Part shown: positions 2,739 through 8,511 of the stretch, in pieces
How positions within the stretch are numbered: the stretch's first letter is position 1
How the letters are laid out: every line of letters starts with the position of its first letter
Assembly (NCBI GenBank): GCA_038850285.1
Contig: JAWCMA010000018.1
Coordinates: 1 to 24,274, forward strand
DNA from: Methanocellales archaeon
GTDB lineage: Archaea; Halobacteriota; JAWCLZ01
Length of the DNA: 24,274 nucleotides
Reading direction: 5' to 3'
The notes under the pieces: model-generated
The model's database searches: none
The model's input: the letters and a program-made list of their open reading frames with translations, nothing else
What the model was told of the DNA's origin: nothing
Program-made: the position numbers and the translations under genes

Positions 2739-3092
2739 ATGGAAGAACTACCTCCACAGGTGCAGCATCAAATCGCTCAATTGCAGCAGATTCAGCAGCA
2801 GGTGCAGGCAATCTTAACACAGAAATCCCAGATTGAATTAACACTGCGCGAGACTGAGCGTGCTCTTGAGGAACTTGAGAAGCTGAGCGATGACGCTGTA
2901 ATTTATCGAAGCATAGGCGAGCTGTTGGTTAAAACTGATAAAAACACTGTGAAAAACGATCTAGCGGAGAAGAAGGAAACTTATACCCTTAGATTGAAAA
3001 CCCTGGAGAAGCAGGAAGAGAGAATTCAAGCGAGATACAAGCAGCTTCAAGAGCAATTGAGGCAGGCACTAAGCACCATGAAGGCAGGCTGA
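2739..3092 (+). CDS. pfdB: Prefoldin subunit beta
   Basis: MEELPPQVQHQIAQLQQ...ALEELEKL...IYRSIGELLV, 117-aa coiled coil; AGGTGG SD. Confidence 0.96.
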   Translation: MEELPPQVQHQIAQLQQIQQQVQAILTQKSQIELTLRETERALEELEKLSDDAVIYRSIGELLVKTDKNTVKNDLAEKKETYTLRLKTLEKQEERIQARYKQLQEQLRQALSTMKAG

Positions 3093-3093
3093 G

Positions 3094-3345
3094 ATGGAAC
3101 CTGAAGCACTGACATCTGCGGTTTATAAAGCTATTGAAGATCATATTTTTCGAAAAGTCAAACCCAGGGATATACTTGACTTGGATATTAGAGTGAGTTT
3201 TGAAATTGAAACCCAGACTGTCAATATAGAGGTATTTCTAGACGCCGAGGACTGGATTGAGGCTGAGGAAATTGTGGAAGGAGCAATTCTTGCGGGCATG
3301 CAGTTGGCTGATAAATTGATGGAGCATGAGCGAATTCTTCAATAA
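3094..3345 (+). CDS. Conserved archaeal small protein (DUF3194-like)
   Basis: IEDHIF...DILDLDIRVSF...VNIEVFL...EEIVEGAI pattern, and conserved position after pfdB. Confidence 0.7.
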   Translation: MEPEALTSAVYKAIEDHIFRKVKPRDILDLDIRVSFEIETQTVNIEVFLDAEDWIEAEEIVEGAILAGMQLADKLMEHERILQ

Positions 3346-4258
3346 ACTCAAGCAATATCGAAATATTCTCTACCTCTGCCATATAAATGCTGATTGCGAT
3401 GCAATTGGCAGTGCATATGCACTTGCTGCTGCATTCGGAGGCACCATAGCGGTGGTTGATACTTGCAACCGCACAGCTTTGGCACTCCTCGAGGCTCTTG
3501 AAGCAAAAGTGGAGATCAATCCGGATCCAAGTGGTTTTGACTTAACAGTAATAGTTGATACCGCAACCAAAGATCTACTTGGCAATTTACAGCTGGGGAA
3601 ATATGCATTAATAGATCACCATGAGTATTCAGAGCTAATAGAGAAAGCAGAGTTCTATATACATAAAGCCGCAGATGCCACTGCCGAACTTGTCTATGAT
3701 CTTTTTAAACACAATCGCTTGCACATTAGCAAAAAAATAGCTCTAGCATTGATCGCTGGCATAGTTACCGATACTGGGCACTTCAAACACGCCACTGCAG
3801 CTAGCTTTAGAAAAGTAGCAGAGATGCTGGAGCAAAGTGGTTTGAAATTCGGAGAAGTTTTAGATATCTTCACCAGCTTGCCCATGGATATAAGCGGGAG
3901 AATTGCGATGCTCAAAGCAGTGGAAAGAGCAGCTATCACGCGGGTGAATGACTATCTCATAGCAACTTCACAGGTCTCTGCCTATCGAGATGCAGCAGCA
4001 GCTGCATTGATTACAATTGGTGCTGATATTGCATTCGTAGGAAGCGAAGAAGCTGGGGAGACTAAGATTTCTTCAAGAGCTAGAAGAGAAGTCGTGGAAA
4101 AAGGCTTGAATCTCGCGCTTATAGTGAAAACCGTGGCTGAAAAATTTGGGGGAAGTAGCGGGGGACACGAAGGCGCAGCTGCTCTATCAGCTAAAGCTAA
4201 TTTTGAAGCGGTAATTCGCGAGTGTATAGAAGAAGGGAAGAATGCACTGAAGAGCTGA
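3326..4258 (+). CDS. DHH/DHHA1 family phosphoesterase
   Basis: HINADCDAIGS, VDTA, IDHH, GIVTDTGHF and C-terminal GGHEGAA motifs. Confidence 0.93.
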   Translation: MSEFFNKLKQYRNILYLCHINADCDAIGSAYALAAAFGGTIAVVDTCNRTALALLEALEAKVEINPDPSGFDLTVIVDTATKDLLGNLQLGKYALIDHHEYSELIEKAEFYIHKAADATAELVYDLFKHNRLHISKKIALALIAGIVTDTGHFKHATAASFRKVAEMLEQSGLKFGEVLDIFTSLPMDISGRIAMLKAVERAAITRVNDYLIATSQVSAYRDAAAAALITIGADIAFVGSEEAGETKISSRARREVVEKGLNLALIVKTVAEKFGGSSGGHEGAAALSAKANFEAVIRECIEEGKNALKS

Positions 4259-4346
4259 GAGCTAAGGTAAAAAGCTAAATACTTCTTCGTAATCTTTATT
4301 CTCAACCAAACTCATAATAAATATTGAATGCACAGGGGTTAAGCAA

Positions 4347-4700
4347 ATGGGTTATGTCTATGAAACCAAGGGAGGCAATGTTAGAATCATAATCTGGGGT
4401 CGCTCAATTGGTGTAATCGATGTTAAAAAAGAGACCACTCACCGGGCATTTTTGAATGCAATAATGGTAATACAAAATTACAGAGATAATATATCGCACA
4501 TAGTGGTCTCGCCAATGATCGAACTCCATTACAGCGATAAAGCAATTACTTATTCCCCTGAGAGAAGTGTGCGCACGGTTAACATAGATGTAGAGGGCGT
4601 TAATATAAAAGATATAATTCAGGAATTGCGAGAGCGAAATATGTTTGCAATTGCAGATCAAATTACCAATGAAACCCCGGTAATAGATTTAACGAGGTAG
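4347..4700 (+). CDS. Hypothetical protein (117 aa)
   Basis: ATG-started ORF after an AT-rich promoter-like gap, 3 nt upstream of the next ORF; predicted alpha/beta pattern; no family recognised. Confidence 0.7.
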   Translation: MGYVYETKGGNVRIIIWGRSIGVIDVKKETTHRAFLNAIMVIQNYRDNISHIVVSPMIELHYSDKAITYSPERSVRTVNIDVEGVNIKDIIQELRERNMFAIADQITNETPVIDLTR

Positions 4701-4703
4701 TAA

Positions 4704-5618
4704 ATGGGCATTGTGCTCTTTAGAAATGATAGTGGAATAAGCATAAAAGAACTTAATAATTTAAGCGCTGAAATTGAAAAAAACTTGGAGTTAAAGCCAA
4801 GTATAGTTGAAATCCCCCTTAACACTTATTTTGACAGCGGCATTTTAGGAGTAAGAATTTTCGATGAATTTCAAAGATTCATTGCCCAACTTGGAATGGG
4901 CGAAACCAAGCGCATAGTTGGGGTGCTGCTTGTATCAGAGCCAGTTCCAATAGACTTCGTAGAATTCACTGATGACAAGCGCATAATATTAGCTGCGGCT
5001 AAAAGAGGAGAGGGCTTGGTAACAGCGGTTAAAATACTTCATTTACTCGGCCACGCGCTTACCCTTAGAAAAGACTATGATTACTACTTAGAGCACGGCT
5101 TTGCCCACTGTCAAGTGAAAAATTGCATAATGAATCCTGAAATTGGACACGCAGATGCAATTTCACCTGAGGGCATGTTTATCTGCAGCGATAGCCTGAG
5201 GGAGATAAAAGAGGGAATTAAATTTCTAGGCCTAGATAAAGAATTGCTGGAAATCAAACCTGCTGTGCAAGTTGAACCTGAGGTAATTGAATTTGAAAAA
5301 GCAGGCAAACCTAAGTTCTCGCTGCGCAAATTGCTTACGAGGACGAAATATAGATTGAAGCACCTTCGAGTTTTGCCAGTGAAGAAAAAAAGTAGGCCAC
5401 CCTTGAAGCAGATGAAGCAGGAGGAAATTAGCCCGCCAGCTGCATCTGCAGGAACTGGAGGAATATCAATGCAAGCTGGCGAACTTTTGGATAAAACTGG
5501 ATTAAGTGGAGATGCCCTCTTCCCCGTGGACTGGAATAAGGCTTATTCAACAAAGTATATAGCTGATATGTTGGATTATTACGTACAGCAGAGCAAGAGA
5601 AGGCAGAAAAAAGAATGA
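4704..5618 (+). CDS. Archaemetzincin-like (M54-like) zinc-binding protein lacking the catalytic Glu, with a basic/low-complexity C-terminal tail
   Basis: HLLGHALTL...AHCQVKNCIMN...FICSDS resembles HExxHxxGxxHC-x4-CxM...CxxC, but E is replaced by L; GAGGT SD upstream. Confidence 0.65.
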   Translation: MGIVLFRNDSGISIKELNNLSAEIEKNLELKPSIVEIPLNTYFDSGILGVRIFDEFQRFIAQLGMGETKRIVGVLLVSEPVPIDFVEFTDDKRIILAAAKRGEGLVTAVKILHLLGHALTLRKDYDYYLEHGFAHCQVKNCIMNPEIGHADAISPEGMFICSDSLREIKEGIKFLGLDKELLEIKPAVQVEPEVIEFEKAGKPKFSLRKLLTRTKYRLKHLRVLPVKKKSRPPLKQMKQEEISPPAASAGTGGISMQAGELLDKTGLSGDALFPVDWNKAYSTKYIADMLDYYVQQSKRRQKKE

Positions 5619-5642
5619 AGAATGAAGAATGAGGAATGAGGA
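5611..5642 (+). repeat. 7-bp tandem repeat (AAGAATG)3-AGGAATG-AGGA
   Basis: Read directly from the sequence; spans the stop codon of 4704..5618 and the SD of the following small ORF. Confidence 0.85.
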
Positions 5643-5647
5643 TATAT

Positions 5648-5764
5648 ATGCCTAGATGTGCTATTTGCAATGCAAGTATAAAGGATCCCAAGAGGATTAC
5701 CTCCTGCCCAGTTTGCGGTAAAATGATTTGCAATAAATGCATGCCCAAGCATAAATGCAGTTAA
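5648..5764 (+). CDS. 38-aa Cys-rich zinc-finger microprotein (AN1-like)
   Basis: Below the ORF-track size cutoff. MPRCAICNASIKDPKRITSCPVCGKMICNKCMPKHKCS*; GAGGA 5 nt before the ATG; spacing C-x2-C-x12-C-x2-C-x4-C-x2-C-x3-H-x-C. Confidence 0.8.
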   Translation: MPRCAICNASIKDPKRITSCPVCGKMICNKCMPKHKCS

Positions 5765-5824
5765 CCCTTGACCTTAAGTTAATTTAATATCCACCGCGAG
5801 CAACATTATCACTGGAGATAAATT

Positions 5825-6388
5825 ATGAGCATGAAGCGCTATATCGTGCAGTATACAGCTTCAAAGACAGCTTCCAAGATCTTTCAGGAATTGAAAGAAC
5901 GCGACTGCGACAATCTAAACTTCGCTGATTTACTAGATGAAATTGAGAGAGATAGAACTAAGCCCTATATAGCAGCGGATAGTGTTTTCAAAGATGCAAT
6001 TAAAGTAGAGCTGGAGAGAAGTGCGCTAACGCTCGAGCAGAGGGATAGATATAGAGAGGTATACATCAAGCCCCTCGAGGATTCCATTCAAATTACTATT
6101 TTAGATGATCGAATTTCAGGCGAGCAATGCGATGCTCTAGCTAAAGAAGTAGCTGCCCAGCTTAGCTTTGCCATCACCGGGAGAGAAATAGAGGAGATTA
6201 AGATTTTAAATGTAGTTTCAATCAACGTGTGCTCTAACTGCAATAGAGTAGTTCGAGGACTTGGCTATCTTTGCTCTGAATGCGGCCAAATCTATTGCTT
6301 TGAACACGTGCAGCCTGAGAAACACAATTGCACTGAGAAAAAAGAGGAAAAAGAAATAGCAGTCATTAGCAAGGAAAAATGCGGCTAG
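5825..6388 (+). CDS. AN1-type zinc finger domain protein with an unknown N-terminal domain
   Basis: CSNC-x10-CSEC-x4-CFEH-x5-HNC fits the AN1 consensus exactly; GGAG SD upstream. Confidence 0.85.
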   Translation: MSMKRYIVQYTASKTASKIFQELKERDCDNLNFADLLDEIERDRTKPYIAADSVFKDAIKVELERSALTLEQRDRYREVYIKPLEDSIQITILDDRISGEQCDALAKEVAAQLSFAITGREIEEIKILNVVSINVCSNCNRVVRGLGYLCSECGQIYCFEHVQPEKHNCTEKKEEKEIAVISKEKCG

Positions 6389-6849
6389 TGGTAAATTTGA
6401 GCTTTAGAATAGGTGTAATTGGATCAAGTGCAAGTATACCTCGCCACGAAGCCCTTGCTTATGAAGTGGGAAAACTCATTGCTGAAAAAGGCTGGGTACT
6501 TATTTGCGGCGGCTTAAGCGGTGTAATGGAAGCAGCGTGCAGAGGCGCCCTGGAAAAAGGTGGCTTAACAGTTGGCATAATTCCAAGCGATGGAGAGGAT
6601 GCAAATCCATATGTTAAGATCCCAGTGATCACTGGCATAGGTTATGCTCGAAATATTATAATCGTGAAAAGCTCGCAAGCACTAATAGCAATAGGCGGGG
6701 AATTTGGTACTCTATCGGAAATTGCAATTGCACTTAAACTTAAAAAACCAGTCATTGGACTTGAAACCTGGGATATAAAAGGTATTTTAAAGGCAGCAAC
6801 GCCTGAGGAAGCCATTCAAATGGTCGAAATAGCTTTAATAGAGCGATAA
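6379..6849 (+). CDS. LOG/SLOG family protein (TIGR00725-like)
   Basis: IGVIG, ICGGLSGVMEAACRGA, TGIGYARN, IAIGGEFGTLSEIA motifs. The start may be slightly downstream. Confidence 0.92.
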   Translation: MRLVVNLSFRIGVIGSSASIPRHEALAYEVGKLIAEKGWVLICGGLSGVMEAACRGALEKGGLTVGIIPSDGEDANPYVKIPVITGIGYARNIIIVKSSQALIAIGGEFGTLSEIAIALKLKKPVIGLETWDIKGILKAATPEEAIQMVEIALIER

Positions 6850-8511
6850 ATGGAGAAAAAGATGCAATTAATCAAAAGATATCGAAGATATCTTCAAATC
6901 TTTTATATATTTCTCAAATACGGGCTCTTCACCATTTTCTATGAAGAACTTCAAGCACGAAAACACATTTCAGATGAAAAGTGCACTTGCACCATAGATC
7001 AAATGCGAATGCAAAAAGCGCGGAAATTGCGCTTGGCATTTGAAGAACTTGGACCTACTTTTATAAAGCTAGGCCAAATGCTAAGCCAGAGGCCAGATCT
7101 CGTGCCACATGCATATATTATGGAGCTTGAGAAGCTGCAAGATACTGTTGCCCCCATTAGCTTTGAGGAGATGCGCAAGACCTTTGAAAGCGAGTGCATT
7201 TGCACTAAATTTGGGGAGCATAATCCCTATTGCTATCACTGCAACGATATTCTTTCGATTTATGAGGAGTTCGATGTAAATCCAATTGCAAGTGCTTCAC
7301 TGGCTCAGGTATATAGAGCAAAGATCAATGGTGAAAAAGTAGCAATTAAAGCCCTGCGCCCAAATGTAATTGACCTGATCAATTTAGACTTAATGATAAT
7401 TTATGACTTGCGCAAGCTCTTGATAAAGATCCTTGGCTTCAATAAAGACTTCAACTTTGATGAATTCATCGATGAATTTCGAATGATGCTAAAGCGAGAG
7501 ATTGACTATCGCCAAGAAGCCATAAATGCAGAAAAATTCAGGGAAAACTTCAAAGGCAGAGAAGATGTTAAGATTCCCAAGATCTACTGGAAGTTAAGTC
7601 GAGAAAAAATTTTAGTAATGGAGTATATTGAAGGCAAAAAAATTGCAGAGGCAATGCAAGAATTAGCGCCGCTGGATCGCAAGTTAATTGCTGAAGAAAT
7701 CGCGAGTAATTTCCTAAAGCAAATATATATAGATGGCTATTTTCACGCAGATCCCCACCCTGGAAATGTCTGGTTAGTGGCGAAAGATAAAATTGCCTAT
7801 CTTGACTTTGGTGCATTTGGCAAAATTGATACCAAGCTTAAAGAAAATATGCAATTGCTCTTCTGGGCGATGTACAAGCGCGATGTAGACCTTGCCACTA
7901 AATACTTCCTCCTCCTCGCTGAATATAATAAAGCAATTGATATTCAAAAACTCAAGTGGGATTTAGATAGCATTATTACAAAATATCATATTAAAGATGC
8001 TCCTCAAACTAGGCAAAGCGATAGCTTTGTAAACCTAGCGAGGGAACACAATATTAAGCTGCCTAGGGTTTTTTCACTTTTCGAGCGTGCTTTAATATTA
8101 ACTGAAAGCATGTGCTTAGAATTAGACCCGGATTTTCATATAATGAAGCTTGCAGCTTCATTAATGGAGGAAATAAAAGAGGAAAGAACAAGCTATGCAA
8201 ATATAAAAAAGGAAATAGAAGCTCAACTCCCAACGTACTATAGCCTGCTCAAGGATTTACCCGCGCAGCTTTCAAATATCCTGAAGAAAGGCAGCGAGGA
8301 AGGAATCCCAGTATATATGAAAGGCGAGCTATTCGACGTCAGAAGAATACCCGCTCAAGAAATACTCTTTTCCTATCTTGCAATAATTGCCTTGATAGCT
8401 GCTTCAGCATATCTCATAAGCTTGAATATTTCAGAGCTTATTAATCATATTTCATTCGTTATATTTGGACTTGGAATCGCATTGATAATATTCCGAGTTT
8501 TGAGGAGATAG
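6850..8511 (+). CDS. AarF/UbiB/ABC1 atypical kinase family protein
   Basis: LGPTFIKLGQ (KxGQ), IASASLAQVYRA, VAIK, FHADPHPGN and LDFG motifs; two C-terminal hydrophobic helices. Confidence 0.95.
   Translation: MEKKMQLIKRYRRYLQIFYIFLKYGLFTIFYEELQARKHISDEKCTCTIDQMRMQKARKLRLAFEELGPTFIKLGQMLSQRPDLVPHAYIMELEKLQDTVAPISFEEMRKTFESECICTKFGEHNPYCYHCNDILSIYEEFDVNPIASASLAQVYRAKINGEKVAIKALRPNVIDLINLDLMIIYDLRKLLIKILGFNKDFNFDEFIDEFRMMLKREIDYRQEAINAEKFRENFKGREDVKIPKIYWKLSREKILVMEYIEGKKIAEAMQELAPLDRKLIAEEIASNFLKQIYIDGYFHADPHPGNVWLVAKDKIAYLDFGAFGKIDTKLKENMQLLFWAMYKRDVDLATKYFLLLAEYNKAIDIQKLKWDLDSIITKYHIKDAPQTRQSDSFVNLAREHNIKLPRVFSLFERALILTESMCLELDPDFHIMKLAASLMEEIKEERTSYANIKKEIEAQLPTYYSLLKDLPAQLSNILKKGSEEGIPVYMKGELFDVRRIPAQEILFSYLAIIALIAASAYLISLNISELINHISFVIFGLGIALIIFRVLRR

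Follow-up and report, generated by a model that had tools for sequence, protein, structure and literature searches.

According to the cited passages of PMC3427221, archaemetzincins share the motif HEXXHXXGXXHCX4CXMX17CXXC, in which the glutamate of HEXXH serves as the catalytic base. These passages further describe the archaemetzincin homologue CarG from Myxococcus xanthus, which has glutamine in place of this glutamate, as proteolytically inactive and as part of a transcriptional regulator. The section of PMC8156234 drawn on here presents CarG as a protein with two bound zinc ions and no DNA binding that functions solely in partnership with CarD. DUF6775 is an archaeal archaemetzincin-fold protein of ~33 kDa without HEXXH, which is clustered with Thi4 genes, as outlined in the cited part of PMC13325395. 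Archaemetzincins and archaeal AN1 zinc fingers occur widely, and neither group has an established role in the cell. Here, we analysed four adjacent genes, termed ORF1 to ORF4 (open reading frames 1 to 4), located between positions 4347 and 6388 of a contig of 24,274 nucleotides (JAWCMA010000018.1, C18 in our numbering; hereafter the window) from the Methanocellales archaeon assembly GCA_038850285.1, a genome of 1.28 Mb that is 93% complete.

ORF2 is a diverged archaemetzincin homologue in which leucine occupies the position of the catalytic glutamate, and ORF4 carries a canonical AN1 finger. With about even confidence, we read the locus as two neighbouring expression units of adaptor genes rather than one system. 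Unit A would comprise ORF1 and ORF2, joined by ORF3 in one genus, whereas unit B would comprise ORF4 and the downstream genes for a SLOG protein (TIGR00725) and an ABC1 kinase. Throughout, the source genome (G000) is compared with G001 and G002, which belong to the same genus (g1), and with G003, which represents a second genus of the same family (f1).

Four constrained genes between conserved neighbours

All four ORFs are coding genes under constraint rather than chance frames, as revealed by purifying selection. Relative to the congener G002, the ratio of nonsynonymous to synonymous substitution rates (dN/dS) is 0.08 for ORF1, 0.26 for ORF2, 0.028 for ORF3 and 0.12 for ORF4, with values of 0.105 and 0.127 for the flanking DHH and SLOG genes. 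The ORF3 products of the two genomes are identical in 37 of 38 residues, at a nucleotide identity of 89% and a proportion of synonymous differences (pS) of 0.48. Relative to G003, synonymous sites are saturated (pS 0.79-0.87), and the corresponding nonsynonymous proportion (pN) amounts to only 0.07-0.18.

A preliminary description of the window, made from the sequence alone, had presented these ORFs as a co-oriented, zinc-rich four-gene module between conserved genes. The listing of same-strand ORFs confirms their coordinates and lengths, and the Pfam and NCBIfam matches identify the flanks as conserved families on the same strand. The term zinc-rich applies to three of the four products, which are of zinc type, but not to the fourth, because ORF1 lacks cysteine. 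The G+C content of the region (0.40-0.41) is near that of the remainder of the window, and the defence and phage libraries PADLOC and PHROGs yielded no match for any of the four proteins.

ORF2 is a diverged archaemetzincin without the catalytic glutamate

The five-member ORF2 family was compared by hhalign with 20 canonical archaemetzincins, which had been extracted from relatives via the motif HExxHxxGxxHC. The families matched with a probability of 92.6% and an E-value of 4.5e-7 over 144 aligned columns, placing residues 8-172 of ORF2 on columns 8-173. In this alignment, HLLGH falls on HExGH, GFAHCx4CIM on GLxHCx4CVM, and FC on FCxxC. In addition, an ESM Atlas model of residues 1-181 matched Peptidase_M54 clusters with TM scores (by query) of 0.61-0.69. 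Foldseek searches with a low-confidence AlphaFold2 (AF2) model ranked the archaemetzincin entries 2x7m (E 1.8e-3) and 3lmc (E 2.7e-3) first and second, above other metzincins. Taken together, the profile, Atlas-model and Foldseek tests, which are more sensitive than Pfam, agree in identifying ORF2 as a diverged archaemetzincin paralogue.

The degenerate metzincin motif (HLLGH ... GFAHCx4CxM) previously noted in this protein is confirmed in the alignment and reads in full H113-L-L-G-H117 ... G132-F-A-H135-C136-x4-C141-x-M143, followed by F-C161. The histidine ligands H113, H117 and H135 as well as the Met-turn residue M143 are invariant in all five homologues, and so is Leu114 at the position of the catalytic glutamate. 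The earlier notion of a dead protease fold is hence supported as to the archaemetzincin fold and the lost glutamate, and a loss of proteolysis would be in line with both. Moreover, a 12-residue insert separates HxxxH from GxxH. The Cys4 site is incomplete, with C136 present in four of the five homologues (Ser in one), C141 and C161 invariant, and the CxxC pair cut to a single cysteine. The best Pfam match of ORF2 is a sub-threshold hit to Reprolysin over the HxxxH helix (16.9 vs 20.8 bits). The C-terminal tail of ~120 residues, which has no Pfam match, contains a strongly basic segment (residues 186-232; pI 10.8, Lys/Arg at 14 of 47 positions), from which a variable linker leads to a conserved helix at the C-terminus. 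Its conserved blocks cover residues 193-228 and 258-303, the latter ending in an invariant KRRQKK.

With the archaemetzincins AmzA (MEROPS M54, PF07998; 2x7m, 3lmc; AfAmzA) ORF2 has in common the profile homology over the catalytic domain, the top-ranking folds, the three His ligands, the HCx4CxM motif and the Met-turn. In contrast to AmzA, it has no catalytic glutamate, retains one Cys of the CxxC pair, stays below the Pfam threshold, carries an extra tail and occurs in one family only. CarG likewise combines an archaemetzincin-type His/Cys motif with a replaced glutamate (Gln in CarG, Leu in ORF2) and represents the best model for the action of ORF2, the two sequences being compared by motif description only. 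However, CarG is a bacterial protein with all four Cys residues, without a long tail and with the tail-bearing, HMGA-like regulator CarD as its partner, whereas ORF2 exhibits the insert, the reduced set of Cys residues and the tail. We know of no archaeal counterpart of CarD. DUF6775 resembles ORF2 as an archaeal protein with an archaemetzincin fold in which the canonical catalytic motif is lost. As far as the cited part of PMC13325395 describes it, DUF6775 lacks the His ligands but keeps a site of three Cys and one His, which is the reverse of the situation in ORF2, and no Pfam match to DUF6775 was obtained for ORF2 at E <= 0.1.

In our analysis, ORF2 is most likely a non-cutting zinc adaptor. 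The retained His triad would hold zinc, and the protein would bind a partner protein or peptide without cleavage in a CarG-like manner, while its basic tail may touch nucleic acid or an acidic partner. If this holds true, ORF2 would be the second independent non-cutting zinc adaptor derived from this fold after CarG, and the first in archaea. We consider the archaemetzincin with a tail but without the glutamate as new in the sense of a variant, the fold itself being known.

Canonical archaemetzincins were detected in G001, G002 and G003 (80-87 bits), and matches to PF07998 above the cut-off in 26 of 41 relatives. None was found in the source genome, which may reflect an assembly gap given its completeness. 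In addition, the source genome and both congeners encode a 237-residue archaemetzincin-like paralogue with intact HETAH and CxxC motifs (Table 1), which matches the canonical archaemetzincins in hhalign (99%, E 5e-18) and remains below the Pfam cut-off with 18 bits. Since this intact paralogue and the canonical archaemetzincins are present in the lineage, a proteolytic role appears to be covered elsewhere. The paralogue harbours an insert of 12 residues where ORF2 has its own (RRKEDVDYSL vs RKDYDYYLEH) and a second long insert ahead of CxxC. The direct comparison of ORF2 with this paralogue was not significant (hhalign 2.9%, E 0.016; BLASTP E 0.11), and a shared descent of the common-site inserts is unsupported.

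ORF4 carries a canonical AN1 finger

ORF4 matches the zf-AN1 model (PF01428, cut-off 27.9 bits) with 33.5 bits over the whole protein, with 37.1 bits over the finger alone and with 36.9 bits in the genome search. The finger spans bases 6230-6343 and has the ligand pattern C-x2-C...C-x2-C-x4-C-x2-H-x5-H-x-C. All eight ligands are invariant in the seven homologues, each of which is 185-187 residues long and contains the AN1 finger; the canonical finger ascribed to ORF4 beforehand thus stands. Among solved AN1 fingers, it aligned with 1wg2 (E 0.0012), 1wfh (E 0.0038), ZFAND1 (7yab; E 0.015) and ZFAND5 in the proteasome entries 7qxw and 9bui (E 0.065-0.067).

The AF2 model of ORF4 (pLDDT 62.6 overall, 60-83 over residues 1-130) places a beta-alpha ... 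beta-beta-alpha-beta domain in front of the finger, for which we obtained generic ferredoxin-like matches only (best Foldseek E 0.022; VIA-wide best Z 5.9). In Pfam, zf-AN1 alone exceeded the cut-off, and no A20, UBL or UIM domain was found. Hence, ORF4 is similar to the eukaryotic AN1 proteins (ZFAND1, ZFAND5/ZNF216 and plant SAPs) in matching the AN1 model and aligning with the solved fingers, but differs from them by the absence of A20, UBL and UIM and by an N-terminal domain without a clear relative. We regard this architecture of an AN1 protein as new to the literature. C28, C102 and the C-terminal Cys-Gly (bases 6374-6388) are likewise invariant in all seven homologues, and they may form a third metal site or provide a reactive C-terminal cysteine, as judged from the conservation pattern. 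The AN1 finger would most likely dock a partner protein, and ORF4 would be co-expressed with the SLOG and ABC1 genes. The predicted complex of SLOG and ORF4 scored 0.00, which permits no call either way.

PF01428 matches were present in 22 of 41 relatives, mostly within ORFs of 250-375 residues. In G003, a 253-residue ORF joins an AN1 finger to a rhomboid protease in one protein; frames of 253-265 residues with a strong PF01428 match (~50 bits) occur in G001, G002 and G003, the architecture having been read in the G003 copy. No such gene was found in the source genome, which again may be due to an assembly gap. The AN1-rhomboid proteases and ORF4 are alike in that an AN1 finger is tied to a protease fold within the same lineage. 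However, in the former the finger shares one polypeptide with an intact membrane serine protease, whereas ORF4 is separate, soluble and located near a dead soluble metalloprotease fold. A literature search revealed no paper joining rhomboid, AN1 and Haloferax. The repeated occurrence of AN1 fingers near live or dead archaeal protease folds hints at a shared logic, which could be tested with the small soluble proteins of this locus.

Apart from these genes, the source genome contains a free-standing AN1 microprotein of 57 residues (contig C19, L071:1456-1629, forward strand) with a canonical C-x2-C ... H-x6-H-x-C pattern and a partial PF01428 match of 36 bits, and a similar small match is present in G001 (C1:65043-65114).

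ORF3 as a predicted zinc-finger microprotein and ORF1 as an orphan

The ligands of ORF3 are arranged as C-x2-C-x13-C-x2-C-x4-C-x2-C-x3-H-x-C. Translation may start at the ATG at position 5648, which is preceded by GAGG at a distance of 8 nucleotides and represents the sole start in G002, or at an alternative in-frame ATG at 5636, which would yield 42 residues. The core CPVCGKMICNKC resembles the AN1 core (CSECGQIYCFEH in ORF4), but has Cys in place of His and a shorter last spacer. On inspection of the sequence, the likeness is limited to the ligand spacing and the core CxxCGxxhCxx[H>C]. Pfam listed no zf-AN1 row for ORF3 at E <= 10, a PF01428 search of the source genome at E <= 1 did not recover ORF3, and a hidden Markov model (HMM) of the seven ORF4 fingers ranked it 53rd of 184 rows (E 28; 25,934 genome ORFs). 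With these three failed model tests, membership of ORF3 in the AN1 family is not supported. The best Pfam matches are FYVE (18.5 bits), RING_2 (17.5 bits) and DUF2180 (16.3 bits), all below threshold. Because the AN1 model tests failed, we interpret ORF3 as a predicted two-zinc cross-brace finger of uncertain family, which would be a young microprotein at the level of the genus.

Consequently, of the AN1-like microprotein of 38 residues in the preliminary description, the real gene and the AN1-like ligand spacing hold, but the AN1 assignment does not. The count of two AN1-type zinc fingers in the locus drops to one by family model, namely that of ORF4.

As an observation apart, GAATGA(A/G) is repeated fourfold at positions 5612-5640, spanning the stop codon of ORF2 and the ORF3 leader, and yields several out-of-frame ATG/TGA pairs just ahead of the ORF3 start.

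The strongly constrained ORF1 showed no match in Pfam, NCBIfam, PADLOC or PHROGs, no sequence match in the PDB at E < 0.4 and no lead in the Atlas, and its profile resembled neither that of ORF2 nor that of ORF4. An exhaustive phmmer search of 1.84 billion representatives returned one other cluster, 87% identical, in agreement with its former designation as an orphan. The search also returned one weak match over 38 residues (E 3.2e-4) to an InlB B-repeat of a secreted protein of 887 residues, which we do not trust. ORF1 is a constrained orphan, and we rate its constraint as the highest among the four genes.

Gene order and conserved non-coding signals

All known copies of the four genes stem from a single small family of archaea from hot springs. 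Among 5.8 billion clustered proteins, the homologues of ORF2 number five when ORF2 is counted as well. Its profile is present in 3 of 401 sampled genomes of the phylum, all of family f1, and the single protein as query yielded matches in 3 of 41 relatives. ORF1 is 92% identical in G002 and 87% in G003. ORF3 was seen in the source genome and G002 only, and its absence from protein databases carries little weight, as short ORFs often remain uncalled. Scans of metagenome contigs with the ORF1 and ORF4 alignments revealed no relatives, and four runs of one hot springs metagenome study contain 78-90% of the sampled words of the region.

In the source genome, the DHH gene and ORF1 are separated by 88 nucleotides, followed by gaps of 3 (ORF1-ORF2), 29 (ORF2-ORF3) and 60 nucleotides (ORF3-ORF4), a 10-nucleotide overlap of ORF4 with SLOG, and no spacing between SLOG and ABC1. 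The order DHH, ORF1, ORF2, ORF3, ORF4, SLOG, ABC1 is the same in G002, with 13 nucleotides between ORF1 and ORF2, subsequent gaps of 13 and 46 nucleotides, and the 10-nucleotide overlap retained. In G003, the order is DHH, ORF1, an insert of 854 nucleotides (L003:2449-3302) with two small opposite-strand ORFs of 61 and 44 residues, ORF2, an ABC-transporter ATPase and permease (L007:1292-2791), a gap of 293 nucleotides, ORF4, a 12-nucleotide gap, SLOG and ABC1. Because the opposite-strand ORFs and the transporter genes intervene, ORF1, ORF2 and ORF4 of G003 cannot all be part of one transcript. Their order is retained within 5.9 kb, and the distance from ORF2 to ORF4 is 3.1 kb as compared with 206 nucleotides in the source genome. 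A free-standing ORF3 was not found in G003, where the best match (E 0.01) lies inside a 303-residue frame elsewhere in the genome. In contrast to the upstream genes, ORF4, SLOG and ABC1 are contiguous in all three genomes.

In G001 (92% complete), ORF1, ORF2, ORF4 and the flanking SLOG gene were not found. We take this region as unassembled rather than truly absent, since the SLOG gene is missing as well and the genome is incomplete. At 21 SLOG loci of the phylum that lie outside family f1, we observed no AN1-type pattern upstream among ORFs within 1.5 kb; the downstream genes vary, and none appeared ABC1-like by eye, no family scan being made. Accordingly, the linkage of ORF4, SLOG and ABC1 is a feature of family f1 only.

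Upstream of ORF1, 34 of the 42 positions of the block 4267-4308 are invariant in the source genome, G002 and G003 and thus across two genera, despite saturated synonymous sites between the source genome and G003 (pS 0.83 for ORF1). The block is rich in A and T and contains TAAATA-like and oligo-T stretches. Neither the block nor the ORF1 leader matched Rfam or showed a stable fold (z 0.96), and no Rfam match was found in the whole window. The block probably serves to terminate the upstream unit, to promote transcription of ORF1, or both. Upstream of ORF4, the sequence AATTTAA(A)TA, followed by CAACA and GGAGAT, is conserved in the same three genomes, and in G003 the TATA-like box is kept although the upstream neighbour of ORF4 is a different gene. 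Judged against the archaeal TATA consensus, both blocks look promoter-like. The TATA-like box is likely a separate promoter for ORF4, SLOG and ABC1, consistent with the earlier suggestion that the gap 5765-5824 may hold a promoter of its own.

Weighing the explanations

The division into two units is based on the splitting of ORF1, ORF2 and ORF4 in G003, the conserved TATA-like box before ORF4 and the contiguity of ORF4, SLOG and ABC1 in three of three genomes. Several points weigh against this interpretation and against the reading of ORF2. The three genomes compared are close kin, and the promoter assignments were made by eye. The retained order of ORF1, ORF2 and ORF4 in G003 is compatible with a functional link, and the close spacing of ORF1 and ORF2 in both the source genome and G002 suggests coupling. 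Moreover, given the AN1-rhomboid fusion in G003, the vicinity of an AN1 protein and a pseudoprotease may not be due to chance. As to ORF2, PF07998 (gathering threshold 24.4 bits) gave no ORF2 row at E <= 0.1, a search of the source genome with this model at E <= 1 did not include ORF2 among its matches, and the AF2 model, built from five sequences, has a pLDDT of 41.9 and is good only for a ranking check.

The preliminary description had proposed a single archaeal proteostasis or zinc/stress adaptor module, in which the dead protease would hold substrates and the AN1 fingers would dock to the proteasome, PAN or Cdc48. The common strand, the tight spacing in the source genome and G002, the gene order kept in G003, the alignments of the ORF4 finger with ZFAND5 and ZFAND1, a prefoldin beta gene 1.2 kb upstream and the AN1-rhomboid protease of G003 would all fit such a module. 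We nevertheless consider it quite unlikely, as the cluster is broken in G003 by opposite-strand ORFs and an ABC transporter, with ORF3 not found there, ORF4 is joined to SLOG and ABC1 behind its own conserved TATA-like box, ORF4 lacks A20, UBL and UIM, and ORF1 is devoid of cysteine. Co-location of the four families in relatives is thus kept in part only, with the genes occurring in just three genomes, and the four genes cannot be regarded as an established system. The statement that the genes are uncharacterised and belong to no named system was upheld: the literature search returned no paper covering both archaemetzincin and AN1, and no such family is evident among the listed titles of papers on archaemetzincins or archaeal AN1 zinc fingers.

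Alternatively, the four genes might be functionally unrelated, clade-specific fillers of a permissive gap in a conserved gene string. Each gene is confined to family f1, the same gap took up further insertions in G003, and the SLOG loci of other families lack the AN1 pattern. However, the strong constraint on all four genes, the order retained across two genera and the junctions of 3 and 10 nucleotides, which are typical of coupled genes, render this explanation unlikely, though less so than the single module. The least probable alternative is that ORF2 is still an active metallopeptidase, with the general base provided by another residue or a partner, and that its neighbours are unrelated. 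The three His ligands and the Met-turn methionine are invariant under purifying selection, and acidic residues between the ligands are conserved (E130 in four of five homologues; D124 and D126 in four of five each, with N and E in P0002), but Leu replaces the catalytic Glu in every homologue. According to the cited parts of PMC3427221 and PMC8156234, the glutamate of HEXXH acts as the base in catalysis, and CarG, in which this residue is replaced, is inactive. Moreover, the genus has the 237-residue paralogue with intact HETAH and CxxC, and canonical archaemetzincins are present in relatives.

A more far-reaching idea, which we rate as very unlikely and only slightly above an active ORF2, is that ORF2, ORF3, ORF4 and perhaps ORF1 are clade-specific zinc adaptors, in which the dead archaemetzincin would hand clients to AN1-type fingers as a soluble, split version of the archaeal AN1-protease pairing. 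This would feed quality control of the proteasome/Cdc48 type or, similar to CarD-CarG, transcription via the basic tail. The two-unit interpretation, which we favour, is of limited reach, since the genes are known from a few genomes of uncultured hot-spring archaea and have as yet no link to a pathway.

Features of the locus

The features are listed in Table 1.

Table 1. Coordinates of genes and conserved elements, given as positions in the window unless another contig is named
Feature	Position	Strand	Description
ORF1	4347-4700	+	117 aa, without cysteine, pI 6.3, orphan
ORF2	4704-5618	+	304 aa; residues 1-185 diverged archaemetzincin-fold domain, 186-304 conserved tail
ORF3	5636-5764 (42 aa) or 5648-5764 (38 aa)	+	microprotein, eight predicted zinc ligands
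ORF4	5825-6388	+	187 aa; ferredoxin-like domain ~1-132, AN1 finger 136-173, C-terminal Cys-Gly
Prefoldin beta	2739-3092	+	upstream flank
DUF3194	3094-3345	+	upstream flank
DHH/DHHA1 phosphoesterase	3326-4258	+	upstream flank
SLOG cluster 4 / TIGR00725 protein	6379-6849	+	downstream flank; start overlaps ORF4 stop by 10 nt
ABC1/UbiB-type atypical kinase	6850-8511	+	starts directly behind the SLOG stop codon
Conserved non-coding block	4267-4308	+	between DHH gene and ORF1
TATA-like box TAATTTAATAT	5780-5790	+	35-45 nt ahead of ORF4 start
237-aa archaemetzincin-like paralogue	source genome (G000) contig C15, L004:1366-2079; also L073, L074	-	genus g1 only, not found in G003

Two further observations concern the SLOG gene in other members of the phylum. 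In G005 and G035 (L048, L051), the SLOG match lies within open frames of 309-311 residues, which suggests an N-terminal extension or a fusion in their genus. In genus g6, a conserved ORF of 47-49 residues with a four-Cys zinc ribbon (MRAYLYRCRVCG...) is located ~420 nucleotides upstream of SLOG/TIGR00725 in four of four genomes (L059, L061, L063 and L064).

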